This document shows, one piece after another, positions 3,873 through 62,075 of a stretch of 64,000 nucleotides of DNA (positions are counted from its first letter, which is position 1; every line of letters begins with the position of its first letter). The position numbers were made by a program, and so were the translations under genes. The notes below the pieces were generated by a model. That model searched no databases and was not told where the DNA came from. It worked only from the letters and a program-made list of their open reading frames with translations. Source of the stretch: a virus; IMG/VR virus record IMGVR_UViG_3300029931_000011. One strand, 5' to 3'.

Positions 3873-4599
3873 TGCTCTCCTCCTTGGCCTTGAGTGCGGC
3901 GATGCCCGCCATCACCAGGGCAATGCCCAGGTCGATGGCAGCCGCGGGGTCATCTGGCGCTGTCACCCCTTTCCAGTTGCGACCAGAGATGGCGGCCTCA
4001 AGCGTCTGAAGGGGGACACCGAGAACTCGGGCGAGGTAGCTCGTGGATGCGCCGTGTGACTTCATCAAGAGCGCGTCGCTGACGATCTTCTCGGTGAGCG
4101 TGTTGCGTCTCGTGTTTCGGCTTTGCTCGTCGCGCGTCGCCCACCGGCAGTTTCCCGGCTCGTAACCCTTGTCGTTGTCGATGCGGTCAAGGGAGTGCAC
4201 CGGGGAGGGCTTCGGCCCCATGTCCGCCAGAAACGACTCAAAGGAACCGGACCACCGGTCACAGACCGCAATTCCGCGTCCCACATAGTTGTGCGCGCCC
4301 CTCCTCGTCGACCGTCCGCATCGATCCTTCATGTTCATCCACGCCTGGTACTCGCTCTTGTGCATGGACCGGAGAACGCTCGCTTCCTTGCGAGCGCATC
4401 CGCAACTCGGGGCCCCGCCACCGCGCGCGACCTGACGTGGACTGGCATCGTCGCGCTCGACGGCCCTTCCGCAATCGCACTGGAACATCCAGAACCACGA
4501 GTGGCCGACCTTGCGTGTCCGCTCCCTCGCCACTAGTCGCCCGTATCTCGTACCCGGAGACGTGGGCGCCAGCACCGGCTCGTCGCTACGCCGCGTCAT
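3865..4599 (-). CDS. Degenerate-HNH (DRID) nuclease-like protein, paralog P1, with C-terminal HTH
   Basis: Track ORF 3865..4707 trimmed to Met37, with GGAGG 6 nt upstream. Core YVGRGIAVCDRWSGSFESFLADMGPKPSPVHSLDRIDNDKGYEPGNCRWATRDEQSRNTRRN. N-terminal CDCG...SCGC. Confidence 0.7.
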   Translation of the reverse strand: MTRRSDEPVLAPTSPGTRYGRLVARERTRKVGHSWFWMFQCDCGRAVERDDASPRQVARGGGAPSCGCARKEASVLRSMHKSEYQAWMNMKDRCGRSTRRGAHNYVGRGIAVCDRWSGSFESFLADMGPKPSPVHSLDRIDNDKGYEPGNCRWATRDEQSRNTRRNTLTEKIVSDALLMKSHGASTSYLARVLGVPLQTLEAAISGRNWKGVTAPDDPAAAIDLGIALVMAGIAALKAKEESNG

Positions 4600-15030: not shown

Positions 15031-15638
15031 CCCGCCCCATCGTCCTCCTCGATGTCGACGGCCCGCTCGCGCTGTTCGTCGAGGCGTGCCAGGCCGAGCT
15101 CGCCGGCCACGGCGTCTACCGCGAGGCTGCCGCCGTCAAAACGTTCCGTCTCGAGGAGGCGTGGAGCCTGTCGCCCGACCAGAAGCAGATCCTCGCGCGC
15201 GCCTACAAGCGTCCAGGGTTCTGCGCTGGCATCGCGCCGCGCGAGAAAGCGCGAGAAGCCGTCGAGCGCCTGCGCGGCATCGCCGACGTCTACGCGGTCA
15301 CCGCGCCGATGTGGAGCGGGCCGACGTGGCAGCACGAGCGCACCGAGTGGCTCGTCGATCACTTCGGGTTCCAGCGCGACCACGTCGTTTCGACGTCGGC
15401 AAAGTACCTCGTCGGCGGCGACGTGCTCGTCGACGATCGCGCCGAGACGCTGGTGATGTGGGAGCGACACGGGCGGGCGTCTGGTGTCGGCGTGCTGTGG
15501 GCGATGCCGCACAACTTCAACGCGTGGGCCAACGGCGAGTGGGACGGCGACCGGACTAGCGACTGGCAGGTCGTGATCAACCTGGCCGAGCGACTGGCAG
15601 GCGCGCGCGATCCGCAGGAGGCGACGCGTCGTGCGTGA
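15027..15638 (+). CDS. 5'(3')-deoxyribonucleotidase (HAD superfamily)
   Basis: Track ORF of 203 aa. The N-terminal LLDVDGPLA is HAD motif I. Overall length and layout fit the NT5C-type phage nucleotidases. Confidence 0.65.
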   Translation: MTRPIVLLDVDGPLALFVEACQAELAGHGVYREAAAVKTFRLEEAWSLSPDQKQILARAYKRPGFCAGIAPREKAREAVERLRGIADVYAVTAPMWSGPTWQHERTEWLVDHFGFQRDHVVSTSAKYLVGGDVLVDDRAETLVMWERHGRASGVGVLWAMPHNFNAWANGEWDGDRTSDWQVVINLAERLAGARDPQEATRRA

Positions 15639-16143
15639 TCGCCCCGGCGTCATGGTGGTCAACGTCGCCACCGGCGAGACCCGTCCGCGCGCGCGGAAGG
15701 GTCCGCTCAAGCACGGTCTCTCGCGGACGCCCGAGTACCGCGCGTGGCAGACGATGCGGCACCGGTGCACCCGGCCGACAAGCCCAAGCTGGCCCGACTA
15801 CGGCGGACGCGGCATCACCGTCGCCGCCGAGTGGCTCAATGACCCACGAGCCTTCATCGCCCACATCGGGCCGCGCCCATCTCCGAAGCATGAGGTCGAC
15901 CGCATCGACAACGAGCGGGGCTACGAACCAGGCAATGTTCGATGGGTCACGCGCCCGGTCAACGACCGCAACCGACGGAGCAACAACCTCCAGACGTTCA
16001 ACGGCGAGACCCTGACGATCGCCGAGTGGGCGGAACGCACCGGCATCAGCGCCGACACGCTCTACGACCGCATCACCCGGCGAGGTTGGTCAATCGAGAG
16101 GGCACTGACGACTCCGGTGCGCGCAAAGGCGAGGGCGGCGTAG
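15631..16143 (+). CDS. Degenerate-HNH (DRID) nuclease-like protein, paralog P2, with C-terminal HTH
   Basis: Track ORF of 170 aa. Core YGGRGITVAAEWLNDPRAFIAHIGPRPSPKHEVDRIDNERGYEPGNVRWVTRPVNDRNRRSN. Lacks the N-terminal CxCDCG element. HTH-like segment LTIAEWAERTGISADTLYDRI. Confidence 0.7.
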   Translation: MRDRPGVMVVNVATGETRPRARKGPLKHGLSRTPEYRAWQTMRHRCTRPTSPSWPDYGGRGITVAAEWLNDPRAFIAHIGPRPSPKHEVDRIDNERGYEPGNVRWVTRPVNDRNRRSNNLQTFNGETLTIAEWAERTGISADTLYDRITRRGWSIERALTTPVRAKARAA

Positions 16144-22195: not shown

Positions 22196-22488
22196 GCACC
22201 GAAGACCGCGACGTGTACCCCGCCGTCGTCCTCAACCCCGAGGCGATCGGCGAACCCAACCAGACGCCGGAGGTGCAACTCTCGCCGGCGCTGGTCGCCC
22301 TCGCGCGGGGCGAGTCCGCGGAGTCGGGCCCGTGCCGGAAGTGCAAGCGCGACGCACCGCCGAGCGCCGACGCCCTGGCCGCCAAGCTCGCGCGCGAGGA
22401 CACGGGCGGCCCGATCGAATGGCTGTCGTACGAGGAGCAGGAGCGGTGGCGCCGGATCGCGCGGCACGCGCTCGAGGTGATCGGGTGA
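22192..22488 (+). CDS. Hypothetical protein
   Basis: Track ORF of 98 aa. 4-nt overlaps on both sides. Confidence 0.5.
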   Translation: MSTEDRDVYPAVVLNPEAIGEPNQTPEVQLSPALVALARGESAESGPCRKCKRDAPPSADALAAKLAREDTGGPIEWLSYEEQERWRRIARHALEVIG

Positions 22489-23039
22489 GCGCCTCCGACG
22501 ACACCACGCCGACCGTTGAGGTCGTCGACTACTCCGACCTGCGGCCCTGCCCGCCGCTCCCCGGGCCGTTGTACGTCGACGACGAGCGCCTACCGCCGAA
22601 CTTCTGGTCCAAGGTGACGCCCGAGCCGAATACTGGCTGCTGGCTGTGGTTTGCCTGTGGTTCTGCTGATGGGTACGGGCAGTCGTTCGTGACGGGGAGG
22701 CAAGTGTACGCGCACAGGCTGGCGTACATCGTTCTTACCGGTCACGACCCGGGCGCGCTCCAGTTGGACCACCTGTGCCGCACGCGCTGCTGCGTAAACC
22801 CGGCACACCTCGAGCCGGTGACGAACGCCGAAAACTCGCGCCGGGGGCGCATTCGCCAGGTCACGAAGGAACGACACGCGGCCAAGACGCATTGCGTGAA
22901 CGGGCACCCGTTCACCGACGAGAACACCCTCGTCCGCACAGAGCAGGGGCGCTCTGGCGTCTACGGCATCCGACGTTGCCGAGCGTGCAACCGGGAACGG
23001 ATGCGGAAGCTTCGTAAGCTACGAAGGGAGTCGGCATGA
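22485..23039 (+). CDS. HNH endonuclease (canonical), with a borrowed N-terminal segment
   Basis: C-terminal 184 aa of track ORF 22086..23039, from GTG at 22485. Contains GCWLWFACGSADGYGQSF...LQLDHLCRTRCCVNPAHLEPVTNAEN plus CVNGH...CRAC. The N-terminal VVDYSDLRPCPPLPGP duplicates the N-terminus of the next gene. Confidence 0.8.
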   Translation: MSASDDTTPTVEVVDYSDLRPCPPLPGPLYVDDERLPPNFWSKVTPEPNTGCWLWFACGSADGYGQSFVTGRQVYAHRLAYIVLTGHDPGALQLDHLCRTRCCVNPAHLEPVTNAENSRRGRIRQVTKERHAAKTHCVNGHPFTDENTLVRTEQGRSGVYGIRRCRACNRERMRKLRKLRRESA

Positions 23040-26955: not shown

Positions 26956-27447
26956 ATGCTCATGGTCGAGCGCCGGCTCGCGCGCGAGCTCCGGGCAAAG
27001 AGCCGCAACCGGCACCGGAAGCGCAAGGAGCTCGGCGCGCGCGCCACCACAGAGCGGTCGAGGAAGCTCACCGACGAGGAGCGGCGCTACGGCGAGATGC
27101 TCGACGAGCTACCGCCGACGCCGCGCCCGCGCACGCGCGGCGAGTGCCGGGACATGGAGCGGCCGTGCCCGTACGTCGGCTGCCGGCACCACCTGTATCT
27201 CGAGGTCCTGCCGAGCGGCTCGATCAAGTTCAACCACCCTGGGCTGGAGCTCCACCAGATGCGCGAAACGTGCTCCCTGGACGCCGCCGAGCGCGAGCCG
27301 TCGTCGCAGGAGTGGACCGGCGTGCTGCTCAACCTGACGCACACCCGCGTCGAGCAGATCGAGATCGAGGCGTTGGCGAAGCTGCGAGGACGGTCGAACG
27401 AGCCCGAGCAGATCGGCGCGGCGCTGATCAGGAAGCCGCGTGAATGA
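26956..27447 (+). CDS. Sigma-region-4-like HTH protein, candidate late regulator
   Basis: Track ORF of 163 aa. Contains CPYVGCRHHLYLEV... then EWTGVLLNLTHTRVEQIEIEALAKLR. It is the last gene before a 340-bp non-coding gap and the late genes. Confidence 0.55.
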   Translation: MLMVERRLARELRAKSRNRHRKRKELGARATTERSRKLTDEERRYGEMLDELPPTPRPRTRGECRDMERPCPYVGCRHHLYLEVLPSGSIKFNHPGLELHQMRETCSLDAAEREPSSQEWTGVLLNLTHTRVEQIEIEALAKLRGRSNEPEQIGAALIRKPRE

Positions 27448-27788
27448 CGAGGGAATCGCGCCCTTGGGAGTTTTTTCTTGCGTGGGGCCGCCAGACCCCT
27501 GACTCTCCTCTCGCGCGCCCGGTCAGAGCGAAGGATCTCTGCTCCCACTTCTTCCGCCGAAGGCGCTCTCCCAAAAAAGAAGCGTGTCGGCGGCGAAGCC
27601 GCCTCTCAGCGGGGCTGGCGCTCCAAACGAGGAGCGGTGCCGGGCAAAGGCCGGCGAGACAAGATCTTTTGGTGAGAGGCCTGTCCGCGCGTCGGACCTC
27701 GCGAGCCCGCTGTCGCCTCACCCTCCCCGGGCGATGTGGCGCCAGCGCGACACTTGCGCCCTGGCCGGACCGTGGGCACGATCCCTCC

Positions 27789-27914
27789 ATGACCCCGATC
27801 CGCGCCCTCGCCGCCATCCTGACCGCCATGCTCGTCCTGGGGGCGTGCGGGGACTCAGGCCCCGGGGAGGACGGCGAGCTGCCGGCGGCGTTCACCGTGA
27901 TGGAGGTACACTGA
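27789..27914 (+). pseudogene. Truncated 5' fragment of a lipoprotein gene (41 codons)
   Basis: Tail of track ORF 27444..27914: MTPIRALAAILTAMLVLGACGDSGPGEDGELPAAFTVMEVH*. It has a lipobox (LGAC) and shares GEDGELPA(A/G)F with the intact lipoprotein at 28558. Confidence 0.6.
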
Positions 27915-28650
27915 TGCCCCCGTTCGTCGACTACACCGGGAAGCGATTCGGAGCCCTGGTCGTTGAAGGGAAGGCGGCGCAGACTGCCCACGGCAAGTTC
28001 CGCTGGTCGTGCCTGTGCGACTGCGGCGCCCGGACCATCGTGGAGGGGCGGTGCCTGAAGAGCGGCGGCGTGAGCTCCTGTGGATGCCAGCGGCGTGCGC
28101 GAATCAGCGCGAAGGCACGGGCGCGCTGGGGTGACCCGCTTGCGCTCAAGGAGAACAACCCGGTCGAATACAATGCGTGGGCGAACATGATCAATCGCTG
28201 CGAGAACCCACGTAACAAGTTCTTCTCGAACTACGGCGGTCGAGGCATCAAGGTCTGCGCCGAGTGGCGTGAGAGCTTCGCGCGCTTTCTTTCCGACATG
28301 GGCAAGCGCCCATCGCCGGGGCACTCCCTCGATCGCATCAAGGGCGACGGGAACTACACGCCGCTCAACTGCCGATGGGCGACCCGAGTTGAGCAGAACC
28401 GAAACCGACGCAACTGCCTCGAGCCCCACGAGCCTGACCAGATCCGGTGGCTTCGCGCCAGTGGGTACACGAATCGTGAGATCGCCTGCTTCTTCGATGT
28501 GCACTATTCCTCGGTCGCCCGCATTGCCCAGGGGCGTACATGGACGGAGGCTGCGTGATGCGTACATGGTTGGCTGCGGTCGCGGTCGCGGTGATCGCCG
28601 CGTGTGGTGGTGGCGGCGGGGGCGAGGATGGGGAGCTGCCGGCGGGCTTT
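27894..28650 (+). mobile_element. Putative nuclease-gene cassette (P3 plus a replacement 5' end of the lipoprotein gene)
   Basis: Bounded by the two GEDGELPA(A/G)F coding segments, 27864-27893 and 28621-28650. By my count 24 of 30 nt are identical. They are 757 bp apart. Confidence 0.5.
27914..28558 (+). CDS. Degenerate-HNH (DRID-type, here DRIK) nuclease-like protein, paralog P3, with C-terminal HTH
   Basis: C-terminal 214 aa (MPPFVDYTGKRFG...) of track ORF 27584..28558. Contains CLCDCG...SCGC. Core YGGRGIKVCAEWRESFARFLSDMGKRPSPGHSLDRIKGDGNYTPLNCRWATRVEQNRNRRN. TGATG junctions at both ends. Visibly more A/T-ending codons than its neighbours. Confidence 0.75.
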   Translation: MPPFVDYTGKRFGALVVEGKAAQTAHGKFRWSCLCDCGARTIVEGRCLKSGGVSSCGCQRRARISAKARARWGDPLALKENNPVEYNAWANMINRCENPRNKFFSNYGGRGIKVCAEWRESFARFLSDMGKRPSPGHSLDRIKGDGNYTPLNCRWATRVEQNRNRRNCLEPHEPDQIRWLRASGYTNREIACFFDVHYSSVARIAQGRTWTEAA

Positions 28651-29001
28651 GAGGTCAACGCGACACGAACGGATGGCGGTGGACCCGTCGTGAGCTGTCC
28701 GTCCACGCCGTCTTGGCGTGCGTGGTTCGAGGATGTGTCCTCCACCGGCGCGACCCTCACGCCGAATGGCGCCAGTGGGCCTGGGGCATGGGTGTGCGGG
28801 GCGCCGATGCGCGTCGACGGCGCGTGGGTCGTAGGCTGCGAGGCGAATACCGGAAGCGTCACGGTTTCGTCGGTGTTCACCTTCGCCGACGCTGGCGGAG
28901 GAGTGATCGATCACGTCGGAACCTTCAACGCTGACGGGAGCGCCGCCTGCGCCTCGTCGTACCGCATCGACTCCATCGTCGAGGACCTCGACGGCCCGTG
29001 A
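28558..29001 (+). CDS. Lipoprotein
   Basis: Track ORF 28540..29001 trimmed to Met7. MRTWLAAVAVAVIAACGGGGGGEDGELPAGF has the lipobox IAAC. The mature part contains several Cys. Confidence 0.65.
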   Translation: MRTWLAAVAVAVIAACGGGGGGEDGELPAGFEVNATRTDGGGPVVSCPSTPSWRAWFEDVSSTGATLTPNGASGPGAWVCGAPMRVDGAWVVGCEANTGSVTVSSVFTFADAGGGVIDHVGTFNADGSAACASSYRIDSIVEDLDGP

Positions 29002-29039
29002 ATGTGGGGACATGTCACGCGCACGCCTAGCGTGCTGCG

Positions 29040-29864
29040 GTGGCGTTCGCTGACGACGAAATCTCGCCCCATGACGGCGACACGGTAGAGCTCTACGAGT
29101 TCATCGGCCCGCAGATCGCGTATCGCTACACGAGCTGCGAGCGCCAGATCGTCCTGAACGGGAACGTGTACACGCCCGTGGCGGGGCTCGTGCGCACGGC
29201 TATCGGGGCCAACTCGACAGGTGACACGGCCGCCTTGGCGGTGTCGCTGCCCGTGACCACGCAGGTTATCCGGGACTACGGGCTCGACGACGTCCCTCCT
29301 CGGTCACTGTTGCTCCGAGTCTACCGACGACAGGAGCGTAGCGCCGAGTACGTCGAGATCTGGATCGGAAGCGTCAACAGCATCCAGCCCATGGGGCGCA
29401 TGGCCGAAGTCCGGTCGATCTCGCAGCTCGGCGAGCGGCTCGACATGGTCCTGCCGTCGGTGTCGGTGCAGAGGCTCTGCAACCATTTCCTCTTTGATCG
29501 ACGGTGCAGAGTCGACCGCCTGACCTACGACTTCGAGACAGTCGTGACGAATGTGAGCGGAGCGACGGTCACGCTGGCGTCGATCGGCATCGCCCCGGAC
29601 CAGTGGTTCCGCGCCGGCGAGATCGTGCGCAACGTTGACGGGGAGCGGCGTGCGATCGTCGACCAGGCCGGCGCCGTTCTCACGCTCGCACACCCGTTCC
29701 GAACGCTCTTGAACGGCAACGGGGTGACGCTCTACGCGGGGTGTGACCACACGCTCGCGACCTGCTCCGACAAGTTCAACAACGCGGTGAACTTCGGCGG
29801 GCACCCGACGGTGCCATCGAGCAACCCGTTCCTGACCCCGATCCGCCTCACGAGGGGGAGCTGA
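29040..29864 (+). CDS. DUF2163 / phage BR0599-family tail protein (RcGTA g13-like)
   Basis: Track ORF of 274 aa. The C-terminal YAGCDHTLATCSDKFNNAVNFGGHPTVP matches the BR0599 signature as I remember it. Lies directly upstream of the host-specificity gene. Confidence 0.6.
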   Translation: MAFADDEISPHDGDTVELYEFIGPQIAYRYTSCERQIVLNGNVYTPVAGLVRTAIGANSTGDTAALAVSLPVTTQVIRDYGLDDVPPRSLLLRVYRRQERSAEYVEIWIGSVNSIQPMGRMAEVRSISQLGERLDMVLPSVSVQRLCNHFLFDRRCRVDRLTYDFETVVTNVSGATVTLASIGIAPDQWFRAGEIVRNVDGERRAIVDQAGAVLTLAHPFRTLLNGNGVTLYAGCDHTLATCSDKFNNAVNFGGHPTVPSSNPFLTPIRLTRGS

Positions 29865-32800
29865 TGGCGTTCTGGACCATCGTGCAGCTCGGCTACCTGG
29901 CTGGCTACTACGGCTGGCAGATGTACAAGCATCACCAGGCGAAGAAGGAGGTCCCGCGGGCGGCCTCGCTCGATGAGTTCACCTACCCGCGCGCGACCGA
30001 GGGCGATCCCGTCCCGCTGATCTACGGGACCGTTCGCGTCCGCTCCCCGGTGGTCTTGTGGGTCGGCGATCTGGAGCCGTTCCCGCAGGTGGTCAACGGC
30101 GTCACGGTCGGTTACCAGTATCGCATCGGGATGCGGCTGCTACTCGGCCGCGGGAACACGGACGTTGGGGCAACGTCCGGCTTCGCGACGCTGCAAGGCA
30201 TGTACATCGGCGACGTGCAGCCGCCGAGCTTCGCGGGCCCCTTCTCTCCGACGGCGCACGCCGGCTACTACCAGGTCAACGCGGACGATTTCGACCCGGG
30301 CAACTTCAACGTCGGGACCAACGGGCGCCTCGTGTTCTACGACGGCTCGTGGGATCTCGAGCGGTACGCGCTCGTGGCGTCTGCGTCGGAGCCGCTGAAC
30401 CCGCCGTATCGCGGTCAGATCACCGTGCTCCTCCAGAACTGGTCCGTCGGCACCGCGCCGACGATGCCCTCATACAGCTTCATCGTCCACAACCCGGTCT
30501 ACATCCCAGGCTACGAGTCGGTGTCGGGGCCGATCGCCAACGGCGCGGCCAACCCGGCATCCGTGCTCTACGACCTGCTGACGAATGAGTGGGGCTGCGT
30601 CGCGAACGCCGCGCCGCTCGTGGATGTCGCCAGCTTCGCAGCGTGCGCGGCAACCTTGCAGGACGAGCAGCACGGCTTCTCGGCGATCATCAACGACTCG
30701 CGCGACGCGAGGAGCGTGGTGGAGCAGGTGCTTCGCCAGATCGACGGGGTTCTCTACGAGGACCCGCAAACGCGCCGCTACGTGCTCAAGCTCATCCGCG
30801 AGGACTACGACCCGAACACGTTGCCGGTGTTCGACCCGAGCAACGTCGTCGGCCAGCCGAAGAAGCCGACGAAGCTGTGGGACGAGGCAGTGAACGAGGT
30901 GCGGGTGATCTTCACGAACCCAGTCTCGGGCTACGGGGAGGGTGTCGCCGTCGAGCAGGATCTGTCGATCATCAGCTACAACGGCGGACGCCGCCGCTCG
31001 GCCGAGTTCCGCTTCCTCGGCGTCACGCACGCGCAGCTCGCTCAGGAGTTGGCGGCGCGCGAGCTCAACTTCCTTTCGCGCCCAATCTCTCGCCTCCGCA
31101 TGACGGTCAACCGCGAGGCGTTCGACCTCAAGCCGGGCGACGTCTTCCGCTTCAACTGGCCCGAGTGGAACGGGTACACCCAGGTCTTCCGCCTCGGCGA
31201 GATCGACTACGGCGACCTGGAGGACGGGAAGATCACGATCACGGCCGTACAGGATCGCTTCGCCATCCAGGGCACCGTCTTCGACCCGCCCGACGACGAG
31301 ATCGGGCCGACCCGGCCGGTCGCCGACCCGATCCATGTCAGCCACATCACCGAGGCGCCGCGGTGGATCATGCTCAAGGCCTACGAGCAGGGTCACATCG
31401 CCAACGTCGACGCGCAGCGGGGCTACTTCCTGGCCAAGCCGGAGGGGTCCGACTCGCGCTACCAGGTCCAGTCCGGCTGGTCGACGGCGCTGCAGGAGGT
31501 CGACATGCCCGGCCGGGTCTTCCCGGGCACGTTCACCGTGGAGACGGAGTACGCGAAGACGACCTCGGCCTACGACACGTCGACCCATCTGCGGATCGAG
31601 AACGTCGTGGGGTGGACGCCGGGCGTCGTGACCACGACGCAGATCCAGGTCGAGGGGCGCAACGTGATCGGTGTGCTCGATGCCAACGGCGCCCTCGAGA
31701 TCATGGCCTACGAGGACGTGATCGACCTCGGCGGCGGCGTGTACCGGCTCCTGAACGTCTGGCGCGGCCTGCTGGACACGGTTCCGGCCACGCACGCCGT
31801 CGGGGCGCAGGGCTTCGTGCTGCCCGGCAGCTACCTCGCCGCCGGCATGGGGCGCCGCGTGTACACGCATGGGACGGCGATCACGGCGTACACCCAGGGC
31901 GCCGCCGGCTCCTCGGTGGTGCCGGTCGAGGACAGCCCCGAGGACACCTTCACCGCCCGCTCGCGCTCTCTCCTGCCGTACCCGGGCAGCGACCTGCTCG
32001 TGAACGGAACGAAGGCGCCCGTGGCGCTCGAGGAGGGCGGCGTCACCCTTCAGTGGAATACCCGCGACCGCCTCAAGACGACGATCACCCGGGGCAACGC
32101 GAGCGCCGAGACGCCCGAGGCGAACACGACCTACGACGCCGTGGCCGTGAAGGGCGACCCGGTGACGCCGGGCTCCGAGGTGAGCCTCGCGTCCGGCGTG
32201 ACGACCTCGAGCACGACGCAGCACCCACTCGGCGCCGCCGGCCACGGCGCGCTCCAGGTCGGCGTCCGCACGAAGCGCACGGGCGTCGCGCTCTCCGACG
32301 GCACGACGCCGATCGGCGGTGTCTTCAACTGGCAGACCCCGCTCCTCGACATCCAGGCGCACCACTGGCGCAACCTGCTCTTGAACCCGCGCTTCGCTTC
32401 GGGCCTTGGGCTCAACCATTGGGACGCGGTCACCGGCGTCGCGACGACCTCGAACAGCGGCGGTCTCGGCAACAACAGCTTCTACGTCACGGGGCAGAGC
32501 GGCACGACGGTCGAGATCCGCCAGACGCTCGACCTCACCGGGTACAACCCGAAGAACTACAGCGCCGCCCTCGACTTCTACGTTCACAACGGCGGCGACT
32601 CCGGCGACACGGTGCAGGTCGAGCTCATCTCGCTCGACGCGGCGACCTCCGTGCTCCAGACGCAGACCTACGGCGCGAGCGACCCTGGCAACGCCTGGGT
32701 GAAGCAGACGCTCTCGATCGCAGACCTGCACGACGATACGAAGTACCTACGCGTGCGCATCATCCTCAACGCGGTCGGCGAGCTGGACAGCGTCGCCTCG

Positions 32801-35212
32801 TGCCGCGTCACCGAACTGTGCCTGCGCGTCGGGCAGGTGTCGGCGCAGCTGCTCCTCAACCCGAGCTTCGAGGCCGGGCTCACGTCATGGACGGCCGGCG
32901 GCTCGGGGATGCAGGTCCTCACCACGACGCCCTACGAGCTGACGAACTACGTCCGGCCGCAGGACGGCGCCTCGTCGACGCTCTCGCAGACGGTCGCGCT
33001 GCCGACGGGCTACGAGGATGGAGTCGTTGTGTGCGAGTGCGCGCGGATGAACGACGCGGCCGACGACACCGGCACCGTGCTGGTGGAGTGCCTGGACGGT
33101 GGCGCCGCGACGGTGGCCTCGGCGACGACCGGGGCCGAGGCGATCTCGCCGACGAACGCGTGGGTGCGGCGCCGGCTGGTCATCGACCCGATCCCGCCAA
33201 CCACCGTGAACATCCGCGTCACCTTCACCGGCACGCGGGTCACCGGCACGCCGAACAACTCGTGCGTCGACGACTTCGACCTCCGCGTCCACAAGCACCT
33301 CGATCCCGACGAGGAGACGCACCTCCTCGACGGCATGGACTTCGTCGAGCAGCCCTTGCCGCGCACGCTGACCGACTGGAAGCAGCACTTCCCGGCGGTG
33401 CCGCCGCCCGACTACGCGATCTACGACGGCGGGCTCGTCGGCCGCCTCGGCATCGAGCCCCTTCTGGAGGCCGGCGCCGGCTGCTTCGCGGGCGGCAAGG
33501 CGGTCGCCGTCGGGCCCGAGGGCGACGCGACGACCTGCTACGAGTCGACGGGGCGCTCCGACGTCGCCGACGAGGACATCCACACGGCGCCGGTCGGGGA
33601 TGCATTCGCGAACTTCGGCACCGCTGACCCGTTCACGGCGATCGCCTTCTGGAAGCTGACGGAAGGGTTCACCGACCCCGCCGGGCTCATGGGGCGCGTC
33701 GTCGGCTCGCGCGGCTGGGCCTTCGACCTCGACAGCGACTCCATCCCGCGCGTGCGCCTCTTCGGCGCCAGCGCGACCATCGCGCAGGGCGGCAACAACC
33801 GGACCGACGACGGCTCGCTCCACGGCGCCGCGATGATCTACGACCAGGCCAACAGCCTCTTGCGGTCGGTAGATCCGTCGGGCAGCTTCTCGGCCTCGAC
33901 TGCGGGCATGGGGGAGATCCGCGCGACCTCGCCGGGGAAGTTCCGGCTGATGGCGACGGGCGAGGCGGGTGTCGACCGGCTCCCAGGGCAGGTGGTGCGC
34001 GCGTACCTGTGGCGTCAGGCCCTCACGGTGGCGCAGGCGCAGGAGGTCATCCGGTACGCGGAGTCACCGGTGGCAGGGCTCGATCCGAACGAGCAGACCC
34101 GCGGCGGCACCATCGTGTGCGTCGTCGGCAGCGACAGCGAGGGTGTGCTCGTCGAGAAGTTCGGGCCGCTGCGGCCGGCGCTCTCCGTCGACCCGGGCTC
34201 TGGTCGCGTCGGGCTCGTCGGGATGCCTGCGCTGACGAACCTGGCGCCGGACACGTTCGACCCGGGGAGCGGATGGGATGCAGCAGGCTCGGGAGGCGCG
34301 GCCGCGGTCACGCTCGACGTCGCGGCGGACCCGACCGGACACAGGGTCGCGGCGCGCATCGTCGGCGACGACGTTCAAGAGTGGACGTTCGGGTACGCCA
34401 GCCCGCTCACCTTCGGCAGCGCCGGGACCCGCCACCTGCACTTCTTCGCGCGCGCCGACGACACGCACACGATGGCGGTCGCGCTGATGAACGCGGGCGA
34501 TGGCATGGTCGACTCCGACGGCTTCGTGGTCACGCCGCAGTGGCAGCTGTTCACCTTCGCCATGGCCTGGGATGGCTCCTCGAGCGGAGAAGGCTATCTC
34601 TCGTTCCGGGCGTCGAACGACGGCACGGAGCGCACCATCTACCTGTCGCCGGTCATGTTCCTGGGCGGCACCGCGGCGAGCCCTTGGCCCGGCACGATCC
34701 CGATCGGAACCCCCGGCGCGACGTCACCGCTCCTCACGATCGCGCCCTCGGCGCAGTTCAACCGCGAGGGCGAGATCGAGGTCGAGCTGGTCAACTACGA
34801 CGAGGCGGGCGTCATCGCCAACGCGCACAACGACGCGGACGACGACGACCGGCGGCGCATCACCTGGCCGACGACCGGGGGCGGGGACGTCGGCAGCGAG
34901 CACTACGACGGGTCAGGCTCGGACGACTCGTCGGCGCTGGTCGCGAACACGACCGTCGACATCGCCCAGCCCTGGAAGGCGCGGCTGCGGTGGAACCGGG
35001 CCGGGCTGGTCGACGGCGTGGCGTCGGCGTTCGTCGTGCTGCGGGCCGAGCAGGGCGCCACGGTCGAGCAGGACGGCGGGCGGGCGTCGGCGTTCTCGGC
35101 CTCGACGACGGCGCTGACGCGGCTGGCGCTGCTGCACGAGGCGGGCGCCACGAGCGCCATGGCAGGGCTCGTGTTCTCGGCGAGGATCAGCGCGAGGGAG
35201 CGGAAGGTGTAA
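29864..35212 (+). CDS. Host-specificity / central tail fibre protein (1782 aa) with multiple lectin-like modules
   Basis: Track ORF. The N-terminal ...DPVPLIYGTVRVRSPVVLWVGD... resembles the gpJ/Phage-tail_3 type. Two tandem NP(R/S)F..GL..W modules look CBM-like. There is a LamG-like segment (...WKLTEGFTDPAGLMGRV...LWRQALT) and a further CBM-like module. TGATG junction with the upstream gene. Confidence 0.75.
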   Translation: MAFWTIVQLGYLAGYYGWQMYKHHQAKKEVPRAASLDEFTYPRATEGDPVPLIYGTVRVRSPVVLWVGDLEPFPQVVNGVTVGYQYRIGMRLLLGRGNTDVGATSGFATLQGMYIGDVQPPSFAGPFSPTAHAGYYQVNADDFDPGNFNVGTNGRLVFYDGSWDLERYALVASASEPLNPPYRGQITVLLQNWSVGTAPTMPSYSFIVHNPVYIPGYESVSGPIANGAANPASVLYDLLTNEWGCVANAAPLVDVASFAACAATLQDEQHGFSAIINDSRDARSVVEQVLRQIDGVLYEDPQTRRYVLKLIREDYDPNTLPVFDPSNVVGQPKKPTKLWDEAVNEVRVIFTNPVSGYGEGVAVEQDLSIISYNGGRRRSAEFRFLGVTHAQLAQELAARELNFLSRPISRLRMTVNREAFDLKPGDVFRFNWPEWNGYTQVFRLGEIDYGDLEDGKITITAVQDRFAIQGTVFDPPDDEIGPTRPVADPIHVSHITEAPRWIMLKAYEQGHIANVDAQRGYFLAKPEGSDSRYQVQSGWSTALQEVDMPGRVFPGTFTVETEYAKTTSAYDTSTHLRIENVVGWTPGVVTTTQIQVEGRNVIGVLDANGALEIMAYEDVIDLGGGVYRLLNVWRGLLDTVPATHAVGAQGFVLPGSYLAAGMGRRVYTHGTAITAYTQGAAGSSVVPVEDSPEDTFTARSRSLLPYPGSDLLVNGTKAPVALEEGGVTLQWNTRDRLKTTITRGNASAETPEANTTYDAVAVKGDPVTPGSEVSLASGVTTSSTTQHPLGAAGHGALQVGVRTKRTGVALSDGTTPIGGVFNWQTPLLDIQAHHWRNLLLNPRFASGLGLNHWDAVTGVATTSNSGGLGNNSFYVTGQSGTTVEIRQTLDLTGYNPKNYSAALDFYVHNGGDSGDTVQVELISLDAATSVLQTQTYGASDPGNAWVKQTLSIADLHDDTKYLRVRIILNAVGELDSVASCRVTELCLRVGQVSAQLLLNPSFEAGLTSWTAGGSGMQVLTTTPYELTNYVRPQDGASSTLSQTVALPTGYEDGVVVCECARMNDAADDTGTVLVECLDGGAATVASATTGAEAISPTNAWVRRRLVIDPIPPTTVNIRVTFTGTRVTGTPNNSCVDDFDLRVHKHLDPDEETHLLDGMDFVEQPLPRTLTDWKQHFPAVPPPDYAIYDGGLVGRLGIEPLLEAGAGCFAGGKAVAVGPEGDATTCYESTGRSDVADEDIHTAPVGDAFANFGTADPFTAIAFWKLTEGFTDPAGLMGRVVGSRGWAFDLDSDSIPRVRLFGASATIAQGGNNRTDDGSLHGAAMIYDQANSLLRSVDPSGSFSASTAGMGEIRATSPGKFRLMATGEAGVDRLPGQVVRAYLWRQALTVAQAQEVIRYAESPVAGLDPNEQTRGGTIVCVVGSDSEGVLVEKFGPLRPALSVDPGSGRVGLVGMPALTNLAPDTFDPGSGWDAAGSGGAAAVTLDVAADPTGHRVAARIVGDDVQEWTFGYASPLTFGSAGTRHLHFFARADDTHTMAVALMNAGDGMVDSDGFVVTPQWQLFTFAMAWDGSSSGEGYLSFRASNDGTERTIYLSPVMFLGGTAASPWPGTIPIGTPGATSPLLTIAPSAQFNREGEIEVELVNYDEAGVIANAHNDADDDDRRRITWPTTGGGDVGSEHYDGSGSDDSSALVANTTVDIAQPWKARLRWNRAGLVDGVASAFVVLRAEQGATVEQDGGRASAFSASTTALTRLALLHEAGATSAMAGLVFSARISARERKV

Positions 35213-60518: not shown

Positions 60519-61313
60519 ATGCCCTCGTTCCTCTCCCGCCTTCTCGCGCCCTTCCTCGCGACGTGGCGCCAGCTCCTCACGCCGCCCGCCATCCCGTCCA
60601 CCGACGTGCTGATGAGCGAGACGGAGTCCGAGATCGATGCCGACGTGATCGAGGCATGCGGCAAGCTGGCGATGGCACGCCTGACCGAACTGTGGCGGCA
60701 GGATATCTACGACCCTCGCCACACCGAGACGAGCGAGAACGCCGAGCGGTGCCGCGCTGCGATCCTCGACATCATCCACAACGGCGGCGGGTGGCGGTGG
60801 ATCAAGCGATACGGCGGCGACGGCGCACCCGCGGCAGAGCACGCCGAGTGGTGCGGCTTCACGCAGGCGTGGGCGTGGGCGCCGTGGATCCCCGAGGAGA
60901 CGCGGAAGACGTGGTGGGCGTCGACGTACCGGCTCGATGCGTGGGCGCGCTATGCGGCGCTCGACATGAGCGGGAAGACCACGCCGAACCCGAAGCCGGC
61001 GCGCGGGCCCTTCCGCCTCTACGTCAAGCTCGACGAGCACTCGACGAAGCTTCCATTCCAGCCGCAGGCCGGTGACATCCTGCTCGTGGGCGACGGGAAG
61101 CCTGACTACGGCGACCACGTCTGCGGCGTGCTCGGGTACGACGAGAAGCGGCGGATGTTTTCTACGTTAGAAGGAAACGGCGGCGGCCTAGGGCCAGATG
61201 GAAAGAAGCAGCACGGTCTAGTGAAGGCCGAACGCCCCCTTGGGGCGACGTCCGGTCACTCGTACCACGCGCGGCGCCTCATCCGGCTTTCGCCGTCGGA
61301 CCTGATTCCGTAG
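60519..61313 (+). CDS. Endolysin, CHAP/NlpC-P60-like cysteine peptidase-amidase
   Basis: Track ORF of 264 aa. Candidate catalytic Cys in AEHAEWCGFTQAWAW. His in GDILLVGDGKPDYGDHVCGVLG, followed by STLEGNGGG. Confidence 0.65.
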   Translation: MPSFLSRLLAPFLATWRQLLTPPAIPSTDVLMSETESEIDADVIEACGKLAMARLTELWRQDIYDPRHTETSENAERCRAAILDIIHNGGGWRWIKRYGGDGAPAAEHAEWCGFTQAWAWAPWIPEETRKTWWASTYRLDAWARYAALDMSGKTTPNPKPARGPFRLYVKLDEHSTKLPFQPQAGDILLVGDGKPDYGDHVCGVLGYDEKRRMFSTLEGNGGGLGPDGKKQHGLVKAERPLGATSGHSYHARRLIRLSPSDLIP

Positions 61314-61985
61314 CCCACGCGCCGTCGTTGAGTACGTGGCTGACGGCTGACTCCGAGCAGCCGACCGCGTCGGAGATGGCCTTGTAGCTGTTGCCTTCTG
61401 ACCGCAGCGCGCGAATGCGTTCCGCCTTCTCCGGGGTGAGAACGACACCGCGACGATTCCTCGCCTGTGTCGTCGGCAGCGCCCACCGGCAGTTGCCCGG
61501 CTCGTAACCCTTGGTGCCGTCGACGCGATCGATGGAGTGACGCTTCGACGGGCGCGGGCCCATGTCGGCGAGGAACGCCGCGAAGCTCTCGCGCCAGCGG
61601 TCGCACACGGTGATTCCGCGGCCGCCATAGTCCGCGTAGTCGCCGCAGTTCGTGTCGGCGCACCGCTGGCGCATCCGCTTCCACAGGCCGAAGTCCGGGT
61701 GGCGTCGCTCGTCAGCGCGAGCGAGCCCATGCCTGAACTTGACCCTCGAGATACGCTCAGCCGCGCCCTCGCGCTGAAAGCATCCGCACGAGCGGGTCTT
61801 GCCGTTGCGAAGGGTTCCTGCGCGGACCACTAGTTCGCCGCCGCAGTCGCAGCGGCAGTGCCATGCAGCGTCTTTCCACTCGGGCTTGGCGACGCGCTCG
61901 ATGACGAGAAGCCGCCCGAACCGCTGACCGCGCAAGTCAATGAATGCCGGCATGTGACATCGATAGTCACGAATACCGGCGGCGC
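61224..61985 (-). mobile_element. Putative nuclease-gene cassette (P4 plus a replacement 3' end of the endolysin gene)
   Basis: Bounded by two 90-nt copies of the endolysin 3' end, 61224-61313 and 61986-62075, 762 bp apart. Confidence 0.5.
61279..61953 (-). CDS. Degenerate-HNH (DRVD) nuclease-like protein, paralog P4, with C-terminal HTH
   Basis: Track ORF of 224 aa. Contains CRCDCG...SCGC. Core YGGRGITVCDRWRESFAAFLADMGPRPSKRHSIDRVDGTKGYEPGNCRWALPTTQARNRR. Its 3' end overlaps the endolysin 3' end by 35 bp in antisense. Confidence 0.75.
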   Translation of the reverse strand: MPAFIDLRGQRFGRLLVIERVAKPEWKDAAWHCRCDCGGELVVRAGTLRNGKTRSCGCFQREGAAERISRVKFRHGLARADERRHPDFGLWKRMRQRCADTNCGDYADYGGRGITVCDRWRESFAAFLADMGPRPSKRHSIDRVDGTKGYEPGNCRWALPTTQARNRRGVVLTPEKAERIRALRSEGNSYKAISDAVGCSESAVSHVLNDGAWATESGPTAKAG

Positions 61986-62075
61986 AAGGCCGAGCGACCG
62001 CTGGGCGCGCGCTCGGGCCACGGCTACCACGCGCGACGGCTGATCCGCGTGGCCCCGCACGACCTTATCGGGTAG
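61986..62075 (+). pseudogene. Displaced 3' remnant of the endolysin gene
   Basis: Translates KAERPLGARSGHGYHARRLIRVAPHDLIG*; the live gene end is KAERPLGATSGHSYHARRLIRLSPSDLIP*. By my count 23/29 aa and 62/90 nt are identical. Confidence 0.7.

Follow-up and report, generated by a model that had tools for sequence, protein, structure and literature searches.

Homing endonuclease genes are thought to persist in coding regions mainly by means of introns and inteins, or by splitting genes whose halves then assemble. Free-standing homing endonucleases of T4-like phages are associated with intronless homing, marker exclusion, co-conversion and gene splitting, the split genes including those interrupted by mobE (nrdA of Aeh1), mobA (T4 gene 60/39) and a seg-like gene (gene 43 of phage 25) (PMC2988022). 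In fungal mitochondria, mobile endonuclease ORFs (mORFs) make 'gene hybrids' that carry a foreign gene end, with examples in atp6 of Allomyces macrogynus, in atp6, atp9, cox2 and nad3 of Glomus, and in the partial cob and atp6 duplications of Endoconidiophora (PMC3630166, PMC6279837). Endonuclease genes are also present at the boundaries of genetic exchange, as 'HEG islands', in ICP1 and other phages (PMC10448857). Here we describe a phage locus in which an endonuclease-like gene lies between two diverged copies of the 5' end of a lipoprotein gene; in our literature search, no phage was reported to have an endonuclease gene between duplicated ends of a host gene.

The locus is located in a 64,000-nt stretch of DNA from an uncultured phage (the window) and is composed of three head-to-tail genes, a 41-codon ORF, the endonuclease-like gene P3 and an intact lipoprotein gene, with the following features in and around it.

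27448-27475, + strand: terminator-like hairpin with a T run, found by pattern scan, which closes the upstream transcription unit
27717-27788, + strand: promoter-like region of the lipoprotein/tail-tip operon, in which 45 nt (27717-27761) match the nearest relative, L015, without a difference
27789-27914, + strand: the 41-codon ORF, or stub, a probable stranded 5' end of the native lipoprotein gene, 80% identical in nucleotides to the L015 5' end
27904-27913, + strand: left junction and 10-nt insert leader AGGTACACTG, from a multiple alignment with relatives L015, L020, L005 and L019
27914-28558, + strand: P3, a free-standing homing-endonuclease-like gene (214 aa; PHROG 374 'HNH endonuclease', E 4e-60)
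28546-28560, + strand: Shine-Dalgarno sequence GGAGG in the last P3 codons, 7 nt 5' of the ATG of the new lipoprotein copy
28558-29001, + strand: intact lipoprotein gene (147 aa) of a heterologous allele type, its body 63% identical to that of L005
29040-29864, + strand: baseplate-hub gene (Pfam PF09931 and PF09356)
29864-35212, + strand: J-like tail/host-specificity gene (1782 aa; Pfam PF13550)
61953-61279, - strand: P3 paralogue (224 aa), found by tblastn and 39% identical to P3

The hub and J-like genes (29040-35212) have the same orientation as the lipoprotein gene and exhibit 81% nucleotide identity to L015. The transcription unit upstream of the locus ends with a gene for a 163-aa protein (26956-27447) that has a weak, sub-threshold match to sigma-70 region 4.

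A sequence-only reading of this DNA had noted that P3 is bracketed by two GEDGELPA(A/G)F-coding segments (27864-27893 and 28621-28650) that are identical at 24/30 nt and lie 757 bp apart, and that both P3 junctions are TGATG stop/start overlaps (27912-27916 and 28556-28560). These values held on recheck, as did the coordinates of the three genes, and the two segments are identical at 9/10 aa. The repeat is real and is longer than had been claimed, since it extends over 46 nt (27843-27888 versus 28600-28645; 72% identity), begins at the lipobox Cys codon, and constitutes the sole direct-repeat family detected within 27400-29100. P3 is bracketed by two diverged lipoprotein-gene 5' ends (27843-27903 versus 28600-28660), and the best ungapped score between its flanks is 20, compared with a maximum of 18 in 300 dinucleotide-preserving shuffles. 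The TGATG overlaps are no mark of insertion, as stop/start overlaps are the norm in this genome: among 26 gene junctions examined, 22 overlap, with an overlap of 1 nt in 5 junctions, of 4 nt in 16 and of 10 nt in 1. A richness of P3 in A/T-ending codons had also been pointed out. Its GC3 of 0.81 is indeed below that of the flanking genes (0.88-0.94) and of the stub (0.93), but the shift is modest and falls within the phage-wide range of 0.78-0.98. The low value is common to P3 and the downstream lipoprotein gene (0.78).

We compared the locus with 15 related phage loci, all of which contain one uninterrupted lipoprotein gene of 125-195 aa directly upstream of the hub gene, and none of which has a P3-family gene. 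Homology to L015 covers 27717-27895 (to 27903 with the use of L020) and begins again at 28998, with about 80% nucleotide identity on each side. The resident lipoprotein gene is broken after nt 27903 (codon 38/39), which is near GEDGELPAAF, as had been proposed, but not directly behind it. What follows, from 27904 to 28997, is a 1.1 kb tract that is foreign relative to L015; it consists of the 10-nt leader, then P3, then a lipoprotein allele that is complete and of another type, and it replaces a gene body of 333 bp. The resident promoter region, signal peptide, lipobox and linker are kept in and ahead of the stub, with the native stub sequence ending at 27903 and the last three codons (EVH) and the stop being derived from the insert. 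The 5' regions of the endonuclease-free L015 and L020 alleles include ...GAGCTGCCGGCGGCGTTCAC(G/C)(A/G)T(C/G)(G/A)TGGC.... On the other side, sliding identity to L015 downstream of 28998 exhibited no step and no clear second boundary.

The stub, which is translated as MTPIRALAAILTAMLVLGAC GDSGP GEDGELPAAF TVMEVH*, encodes a signal peptide, the lipobox LGAC and the linker GDSGPGEDGELPAAFTVM. Its nucleotide identity to the L020 5' end is 78%, close to that observed with L015, whereas it is 62% identical to the downstream copy in the same phage, and that new copy is itself only 61% identical to the L015 5' end. Within the stub, L015 shares CGDSGPGEDGELPAAFT and L020 shares AAFTVM, each without a mismatch. 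Nor is the similarity a chance Gly/Glu patch, which the sequence-only reading had named as a possible refutation: the Cys-linker-(E)LPxxF stretch is the conserved N-terminus of the whole lipoprotein family, and the 80% identity to L015 covers the ORF together with about 70 bp upstream of it, including the perfect 45-nt block. These results bear on whether the 41-codon ORF is instead an independent small gene, for example for a leader peptide or a small lipopeptide, with its likeness due to convergence or low complexity. That the ORF is intact, has a high GC3 and is invariant in all assemblies would fit such a gene; we regard this explanation as highly improbable because homologous DNA starts a full-length gene in every relative (15/15 related loci), and because the homology stops abruptly, within a codon, at 27903. 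The earlier proposal that a mobile cassette inserted in the lipoprotein gene and stranded its old 5' end is thus supported by the 15 uninterrupted relatives that lack P3.

Since the sequence comes from metagenomic contigs, a chimera or misassembly at the repeat might be envisaged. However, contigs from more than 20 independent samples, obtained with three assembly pipelines and in many cases about 65 kb long, agree exactly over 27440-29100, which makes an artifact of this kind exceedingly improbable. The arrangement is unchanged in at least 24 independent assemblies, and P3 is present in every copy of this phage. A search of IMG/VR viral contigs matched only this same phage, a scan of metagenomes with the lipoprotein alignment returned nothing, and a scan of GTDB bacterial and archaeal genomes with the hub profile revealed no prophage relative. 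Close relatives are likewise absent among GenBank phages, where DNA matches are confined to short tail-gene segments and the proteins of the lipoprotein gene and of gene 60519-61313 (see below) are unmatched. Neither a donor with P3 beside this lipoprotein allele nor an endonuclease-free variant of this phage was found in these searches, so the event is reconstructed from relatives that are only 50-80% identical.

The intact lipoprotein gene is translated as MRTWLAAVAVAVIAAC GGGGG GEDGELPAGF EVNATR..., with MRTWLAAVAVAVIAAC being the signal peptide and GGGGGGEDGELPAGF the linker. Lipoboxes are predicted after a basic N-terminus and a hydrophobic stretch in the stub (VLGAC), in the new copy (VIAAC) and likewise in the 15 alleles. 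The mature part of this protein is highly variable, with 21-30% identity between relatives, and the body of the new copy is 27% identical to L015 compared with the much closer match to the L005 allele given above. Judged from a dN/dS of 0.28 between the new copy and L005, the new allele type is under purifying selection. The sequence-only reading was right that the cassette brought a new gene end, and what was brought is most likely the whole lipoprotein allele within the 1.1 kb tract. The structure model of the new lipoprotein (pLDDT 65) has an all-beta body with four Cys. An indexed search recovered two homologues and an exhaustive profile search four; there was no match in Pfam, function-annotated PHROG or NCBIfam families, no phage match by tblastn, and no fold match at E < 0.1. 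The best PDB fold match (E 0.18), a lipocalin/LolA-like hit at the level of noise, was set aside as uninformative. An apparent truncation of the lipoprotein gene in contigs L007 and L010 (a 64-aa call) is a difference between gene callers, as the DNA is identical.

We also analyzed how the three genes may be expressed. The region ahead of the stub contains a -35-like TTGCGC (27754-27759), a 17-nt spacer and a -10-like CACGAT (27777-27782), and the stub ATG is located 7 nt past the latter with no preceding Shine-Dalgarno site, which is the layout of a leaderless mRNA. The same layout (TTGAC/TTGCG, 17/18 nt, xACxxT, 6 to 8 nt, ATG), without a Shine-Dalgarno site, is observed in all 15 uninterrupted alleles. 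We infer from this that 27717-27788 acts as a promoter. A generic sigma-70 scan called no promoter, including at 27717-27788, and GACACTTGCG, considered as a recurring phage promoter motif, shows no enrichment across the window (4 matches versus 6.5 expected). GGAGG is present only ahead of P3 and the new copy, and 0 of the 15 uninterrupted alleles have a Shine-Dalgarno site. The GGAGG of P3 (27902-27906) spans the left junction, and the new lipoprotein copy begins at an ATG that overlaps TGA, the stop of P3. The cassette had been suggested to carry its own promoter-proximal gene end; it does have Shine-Dalgarno sites, but no recognisable promoter, and would therefore depend on the resident promoter ahead of the stub.

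This layout helps to evaluate the possibility that a tandem duplication came first, placing an L015-type gene ahead of an L005-type gene, and that P3 subsequently inserted in the first of these with deletion of its body and of the spacer. Such a history would also account for the stub, for P3 and for a second gene that is intact and starts with a signal peptide of its own, and paralogous copies are conceivable given that lipoprotein bodies are hypervariable. However, none of the 15 related loci has two lipoprotein genes, and two events are needed, the first a duplication or an acquisition, the second an insertion accompanied by a precise deletion. Moreover, every free allele has the promoter and leaderless layout, in place of which the new copy has a Shine-Dalgarno site, and the new copy's low GC3 matches that of P3. 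We consequently consider a prior duplication improbable, and favor entry of P3 together with the lipoprotein allele on its 3' side.

In regards to P3 itself, its ORF is separate, with a start and a stop of its own, and no Rfam family, intron or other RNA element, was detected in 27300-29200 at E values up to 1. A Cys-rich module at the N-terminus of P3 is followed by a central beta-beta-alpha (HNH-like) element and by a helix-turn-helix at the C-terminus, and the structure model (pLDDT 87) has the predicted beta-beta-alpha element at 138-165. Profile matches are to PHROG 374, 3377, 2081 and 953, all named 'HNH endonuclease' (E 4e-60 to 3e-15), and its neighbours in a library of predicted viral structures (BFVD) carry the names HNH or AP2 endonuclease. 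No Pfam HNH model matches P3, even at E 10, nor does an NCBIfam HNH model, and a comparison with solved structures gave no sequence match and, with the multi-domain model, no fold match. Enzymes of the HNH_3 type have DH in their consensus at the position where the P3 family has LDRI, so that throughout this family an Arg occupies the place of the first His; P3 additionally has W71 in place of a near-invariant family His. A search for P3 homologues gave 1150, and the family occurs in 1004 phage records whose unrelated hosts belong to many genera, from Staphylococcus to Mycobacterium; its distribution is patchy. The nearest homologue (53%) is in an unrelated context, adjoining a ParB gene, and tblastn revealed three further paralogues within the window. 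From these features P3 appears to be a homing-endonuclease-type gene with a putative nuclease activity.

One paralogue, at 61953-61279, provides a second case that is a mirror image of the first, as it sits between two diverged 3' ends of the + strand gene 60519-61313. Copy A (61224-61313) ends this intact gene, whose ORF runs unbroken through the copy, while copy B (61986-62075) is stranded. The two copies match at 25/33 aa by tblastx (E about 1e-12), and the shuffle test gave 25 versus a maximum of 17 in 300 shuffles. In a distant relative, L027, this gene is uninterrupted and an endonuclease gene is absent; L027 is the sole relative available for this case and is equally distant from copies A and B. 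Both cases have the same polarity, in that the stranded end is on the 5' side of the endonuclease gene and the functional end on its 3' side. No 5' leader is shared between P3 and this paralogue, and a flank-versus-flank search at the endonuclease genes 3973-4554, 15631-16143 and 22485-23039 revealed no gene-end duplicates. In phage phiAH14a, a P3-family gene is located directly 5' of a tail-module lipoprotein gene whose signal peptide is like the imported one at 10/16 aa; among eight P3-family neighbourhoods sampled in GenBank phages, a true downstream lipoprotein was present in phiAH14a only.

The second case is also relevant to whether ordinary illegitimate recombination between two phages produced the locus, with P3 being a passive passenger that is dead or was never a nuclease. 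The absence of the canonical HNH His and of the near-invariant family His, together with the lack of a Pfam HNH match, is congruent with a passenger, and the P3 family may include domesticated DNA-binding proteins. The recurrence of the same arrangement and polarity around a second paralogue is nonetheless hard to explain for bystanders, and the patchy distribution of the family is typical of mobile endonuclease genes. We view a passenger role for P3 as unlikely.

Instead, we consider it likely that P3 entered the first gene of the tail-tip operon with 3' donor DNA, namely a complete lipoprotein allele of another type. In such an event the endonuclease would have cut an endonuclease-free genome in or beside the conserved ELPAxF-coding segment. 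Repair of the downstream break end would then have relied on homology to a donor that bore the endonuclease gene, with copying that ran back through the donor's lipoprotein allele and P3, and the upstream break end would have been joined without homology about 10 nt 5' of the P3 start codon. Joining of the upstream end without homology would explain why the native 5' end was kept and not converted. Transcription would begin at the resident promoter, at or near the stub ATG, and ribosomes would translate the stub, stop at the TGA that overlaps the P3 ATG and re-initiate on P3, whose GGAGG lies 7 nt ahead, and then in the same way on the new copy of the lipoprotein gene. Expression of the selfish gene would thus come from the tail-operon promoter, and the phage would retain a lipoprotein that works but has been swapped. 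In this scheme the promoter, the start without a leader and the coupling of translation are all predictions from the sequence.

A wider and more doubtful possibility is that P3-family genes are the phage counterpart of fungal mORFs. Specifically, their entry into coding sequences in the absence of an intron or intein may be made possible by a replacement for one end of the target gene that travels with them, always on their 3' side. This replacement may be a 3' end, or else a 5' end that includes signal peptide and ribosome-binding site. The native end left on their 5' side would then show where cleavage took place, and here the process would also drive replacement of the alleles of a hypervariable tail-module lipoprotein. 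This idea draws on the two cases of the same polarity in one genome and on phiAH14a. If true, selfish homing would be tied to the turnover of a lipoprotein with possible control over exclusion or over interaction with the host.

Phage lipoproteins encoded beside receptor-binding genes include Llp of T5 and Cor of phi80/N15-type phages, which function in superinfection exclusion or receptor masking. Like these, the small lipoprotein gene described here adjoins host-specificity tail genes and its mature part is strongly variable, although no sequence, profile or fold similarity to Llp or Cor was found. Similar to endonuclease genes of HEG islands, P3 sits right on the left boundary of a tract (27904-28997) for which the nearest relative has another allele type. 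HEG islands, however, exceed 10 kb and are bracketed by two endonucleases, whereas this tract is about 1 kb, has one endonuclease gene and has its junction in coding sequence where it leaves a stub. The locus has a selfish gene precisely where an allele swap begins, within a hypervariable lipoprotein gene beside host-specificity genes, and provides direct evidence that mosaicism of a tail module can be linked to endonucleases.

As with the endonucleases of T4-like phages, P3 is found without an intron or intein in or beside a phage gene, is present or absent among relatives, and appears to have co-converted donor DNA. A difference is that in T4-like split genes both halves are needed and reassemble as subunits with nothing duplicated, whereas at the P3 locus a gene end is present twice and a functional gene includes just the copy lying 3' of the endonuclease gene. 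This would represent a third survival route, in a phage, where the element supplies a replacement gene copy or gene end and leaves the resident end behind. As the stub would record the point of break joining, a cleavage site is predicted near the equivalent of 27903 in endonuclease-free alleles. An endonuclease gene between diverged duplicates of a neighbour's end may also serve in genome scans as a flag for recent horizontal exchange and for mis-annotated 'small ORFs'.

Finally, the arrangement shares with fungal mORFs an endonuclease ORF between two diverged copies of one host-gene end, an inserted copy that keeps the gene whole while the native copy is stranded, and a native copy that is nearer to a close relative than the inserted copy is (here 80% versus 61%). 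It differs from them in being in a bacteriophage and not an organelle, in involving an HNH-like phage family instead of GIY-YIG or LAGLIDADG enzymes, and in that P3 is not fused in frame but is joined by stop/start overlaps. At the P3 locus the stranded end is also a 5' end, with promoter, signal peptide and lipobox, and the gene body was probably swapped whole; because the lipoprotein body is also of a foreign type, the gene may be wholly imported and not a hybrid with a resident core. The locus at 61224-62075, on the other hand, has the layout of fungal mORFs, with a core gene followed by an inserted C-terminal end, an endonuclease gene and the native C-terminal end.

P3, an endonuclease-like gene, lies between a 41-codon ORF (the stub) and an intact lipoprotein gene, and the sequence-only reading's description of this region, including its two TGATG junctions, holds.

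Features of the P3 locus
26956-27447: gene of a 163-aa protein, upstream of the stub; match to sigma-70 region 4 weak and below threshold
27448-27475: terminator-like hairpin and T run after the 163-aa protein gene, and a 340-bp gap
27789-27914: stub ORF, 41 codons, encoding MTPIRALAAILTAMLVLGAC-GDSGP-GEDGELPAAF-TVMEVH, stop
27914-28558: P3, 214 aa, joined to the stub by a TGATG stop/start overlap
28558-29001: intact lipoprotein gene, 147 aa, after a second TGATG overlap, encoding MRTWLAAVAVAVIAAC-GGGGG-GEDGELPAGF-EVNATR...
29040-29864: baseplate-hub gene (PF09931 and PF09356), 3' of the lipoprotein gene
3' of the hub gene: J-like tail protein gene, 1782 aa (PF13550)

The two ten-codon segments encoding GEDGELPA(A/G)F lie 757 bp apart and are alike at 24/30 nt, as had been counted, and at 9/10 aa. 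The similarity between the stub and the downstream copy begins at the lipobox Cys codon and covers 46 nt at 72% identity; this pair is the only direct-repeat family within 27400-29100, and the flank-versus-flank score of 20 at P3 exceeded all of 300 dinucleotide-preserving shuffles (maximum 18). Two other features to which the earlier reading pointed carry less weight. The TGATG overlaps are present but are weak support, as 22 of the 26 junctions examined overlap in what is the house style of this genome (5 of the 22 by 1 nt, stop on start). The GC3 of P3 (0.81) is indeed below that of its flanking genes (0.88-0.94), yet it falls inside the genome range of 0.78-0.98; the stub has a GC3 of 0.93, and the downstream lipoprotein gene, at 0.78, is low like P3.

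Sequence searches returned very few homologues of the lipoprotein. One of these, P0002 (65% identical), is on a 953-bp contig, L005, where the lipoprotein gene is uninterrupted, with 97 bp of non-coding DNA before it and the hub gene after it. A graded series of relatives was obtained by searching with the hub protein (L015, the nearest relative, with a hub 76% identical, and L019, L020, L021 and L023), and a metagenome scan gave further loci (L030-L038, L050). An uninterrupted allele, which the earlier reading had proposed to look for in related phages, is present in each of them: a single lipoprotein gene of ~125-195 aa stands directly 5' of the hub gene, and a P3-family gene is absent from all these loci. 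Common to the alleles are a lipobox-bearing signal peptide, a short linker rich in Gly and Asp that leads to (E)LPxxF (the F is missing in some), and a body that has four conserved Cys and is otherwise hypervariable, with 21-30% identity between types. In the group to which this phage belongs, the hub gene and the J-like gene (29040-35212 in the window) come after the lipoprotein gene and a promoter, apart from the other tail genes; in more distant relatives (hub identity <=42%, and L022; L022 and L039-L108 compared) the hub gene comes directly after tape-measure or distal-tail genes, without a lipoprotein gene beside it.

Comparison with L015 by blastn locates the breakpoints. The window aligns over 27717-27895 and again over 28998-34835, at ~80% identity each, with the 45 nt at 27717-27761 identical, and L020 prolongs the left homology to 27903 (ELPAAFTVM/ATRE in L020 versus ELPAAFTVM/EVH-stop in the window). 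Where the L015 gene body has 333 bp between the breakpoints, the window has 1102 bp, made up of a leader AGGTACACTG, then P3, then a whole lipoprotein gene. The stub shares 80% identity with the 5' end of the L015 gene and 78% with that of L020, versus 62% with the window's own downstream copy, which is itself 61% identical to L015. In its body, the downstream gene shares 63% identity with the L005 allele and 27% with the L015 allele, and DNA similarity to L005 starts exactly at the GEDGEL codons (28621) and continues into the hub gene. Thus, the native start of the gene survives as the stub, and the allele that functions, 3' of P3, is imported. These breakpoints, together with the uninterrupted alleles of the relatives, support with refinements the earlier proposal that a mobile cassette had inserted into the lipoprotein gene and stranded its 5' end. 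That two tandem lipoprotein genes existed before P3 inserted is improbable, being backed by none of the relatives.

The imported lipoprotein retains the lipobox and all four Cys, and its dN/dS of 0.28 against L005 places this allele type under purifying selection as judged by sequence comparison. Database and fold searches matched the lipoprotein to no family, phage protein or fold, and its structure model is all-beta with moderate confidence only (pLDDT 65). Llp of T5 and Cor are receptor-masking lipoproteins; the window's lipoprotein resembles them in adjoining host-specificity genes and in its hypervariable body, a likeness that serves as a lead and not as a finding.

The arrangement is not an assembly artefact. 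The lipoprotein, P3 and the hub protein each occur on >20 contigs, many of them ~65 kb, which come from independent samples in JGI, ENA and Logan assemblies. All fetched loci have the same sequence over 27440-29100, which excludes misassembly. In essence, the window is the genome of a single uncultured phage. Its fetched copies included no variant without the endonuclease gene, and a search of GTDB (bacterial and archaeal genomes) found no prophage relative.

P3 matches PHROG 374, 'HNH endonuclease' (E 4e-60), and four more PHROGs whose annotation is HNH or restriction endonuclease. Homologues of P3 at E < 1e-10 number 1150, and tblastn found it in 1004 GenBank phage records, with hosts from Staphylococcus to Mycobacterium, where the matches carry the label HNH endonuclease, homing endonuclease or hypothetical protein. 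The nearest homologue (53%) sits beside a ParB gene on an unrelated contig. In the AlphaFold model (pLDDT 87), the CxCxCG...SCGC cysteines lie in an N-terminal beta module, which is followed by a helical middle part, by a beta-beta-alpha element at 138-165 and, at the C-terminus, by a helix-turn-helix. In BFVD, a library of predicted viral structures, the neighbours of this model bear the names HNH or AP2 endonuclease. Pfam and NCBIfam HNH models did not match P3 even at E 10, nor did solved structures. The consensus of HNH_3-type enzymes has its first His at the position equivalent to LDRI, where the P3 family has an invariant Arg, and of the 17 sequences aligned P3 is the only one with Trp in place of a near-invariant His, which is missing from one other member too. 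Given its patchy distribution, its presence or absence at this locus and three further paralogues in this genome, P3 behaves like a mobile endonuclease gene, with putative nuclease activity.

One of these paralogues lies in a second locus of the same kind.

Second locus and other endonuclease-type genes
60519-61313 (+): neighbouring gene, 264 aa, with its 3' end duplicated around the paralogue
61224-61313: copy A, ...KAERPLGATSGHSYHARRLIRLSPSDLIP, stop; end of the intact gene 60519-61313
61953-61279 (-): P3 paralogue, 39% identical to P3
61986-62075: copy B, KAERPLGARSGHGYHARRLIRVAPHDLIG, stop; in a 43-codon ORF, 61944-62075 (+), beyond the endonuclease gene
3973-4554 (-), 15631-16143 (+), 22485-23039 (+): two P3-family paralogues and one separate Pfam HNH_3 gene

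The diverged copies A and B share 25/33 aa (E about 1e-12) and score 25 versus a shuffle maximum of 17. In the distant relative L027 the gene is uninterrupted and directly abuts a convergent gene, without an endonuclease gene; L027 is equally distant from copies A and B. The topology is that of the P3 locus, with the stranded copy 5' of the endonuclease gene and the functional copy 3'. Endonuclease-type genes number at least five in this ~65-kb phage; no flanking gene-end duplicates were found at 3973-4554, 15631-16143 or 22485-23039, and the paralogue at 15631-16143 is missing the N-terminal Cys module.

Expression signals at the P3 locus
27754-27759: TTGCGC, stub promoter-like element
27777-27782: CACGAT, stub promoter-like element
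27789: ATG of the stub
27902-27906: GGAGG, across the junction
28546-28550: GGAGG, within the last codons of P3

The stub and 15 uninterrupted alleles (L005, L015, L019-L021, L023, L030-L037 and L050; 27717-27788 in the window) share a layout of TTGAC(A)/TTGCG, a 17-18 nt spacer, xACxxT, 6-8 nt and ATG, without a Shine-Dalgarno site. This layout suggests a promoter giving a leaderless mRNA, with the lipoprotein gene first in a tail-tip operon. A GGAGG, 7 nt ahead of the ATG, is confined to P3 and the imported lipoprotein copy. On the simplest reading, the resident promoter would drive a single transcript, with translation of the stub starting at a 5'-terminal AUG; at the TGATG overlaps, termination-reinitiation would then give translation of P3 and next of the lipoprotein gene. 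We infer this step from the layout, since a generic sigma-70 scan did not call the stub site and the motif is not repeated elsewhere in the window. The gene of the 163-aa protein lies just 5' of the lipoprotein locus in L015 as well. The gap from the hairpin to the conserved promoter block (27448-27716) is ~200 bp longer than in L015 or L005 and has no counterpart in either, no Rfam match and no coding-like ORF among those examined.

In genomes without their gene, free-standing phage endonucleases cut close to the site at which that gene inserts, and the gene is copied in along with flanking donor DNA (PMC2988022); endonuclease genes are frequently positioned at the edges of exchanged tracts (PMC10448857). 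The locus probably arose by such break repair, which fits its anatomy. An L015-like genome would have been broken within or next to the conserved segment that codes for ELPAxF. The downstream end of the break would have been repaired by copying from a donor with P3 just 5' of an MRTW-type lipoprotein gene, and the upstream end would have been joined without homology ~10 nt ahead of the P3 ATG, so that the native 5' end was kept and not converted. No donor with P3 upstream of an MRTW-type lipoprotein gene was found. In Pseudomonas phage phiAH14a (KU708004.1, 45547-46660; L109/L117) a P3-family gene (46% identical over 166 aa) immediately precedes a gene annotated as a lipoprotein gene; of eight neighbourhoods sampled, no other showed this. 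The pair lies between tail assembly genes K and I and resembles an insert complete in itself, as a TATAAT-like box lies upstream of it and a hairpin and T run downstream. The mature lipoproteins of the two phages are unrelated and their signal peptides alike (MRILIAAVAVAMLAGC versus the window's imported MRTWLAAVAVAVIAAC, 10/16 aa), a likeness that may be due to chance (rough estimate ~0.01).

A literature search found no phage description of an endonuclease gene with duplicated host-gene ends, which is not proof of absence. The closest precedent is the 'gene hybrids' made by mobile endonuclease ORFs (mORFs) of fungal mitochondria, in which a core gene is followed by an inserted foreign C-terminal end, the endonuclease ORF and the native C-terminal end, as in Allomyces atp6 and Glomus atp6, atp9, cox2 and nad3, and in which the sister species matches the native and not the inserted end (PMC3630166). 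Endonuclease ORFs lying between the copies of partially duplicated cob and atp6 have also been described (PMC6279837). The second locus has the layout of these hybrids, whereas the P3 locus is their 5'-end mirror image, with a promoter and signal peptide stranded. The split genes of T4 type (mobE in nrdA, mobA in gene 60/39) differ from both, as they involve no duplication and both halves are needed (PMC2988022). The P3 locus is a well-documented natural insertion of an endonuclease gene that stranded one gene end and imported its replacement, and such an insertion with a stranded gene end occurs twice in one phage genome. The same polarity at both, if general for this endonuclease family, would raise the importance of the finding; the arrangement itself is akin to fungal mitochondrial mORF hybrids and to phage intronless homing, and is not a new category.
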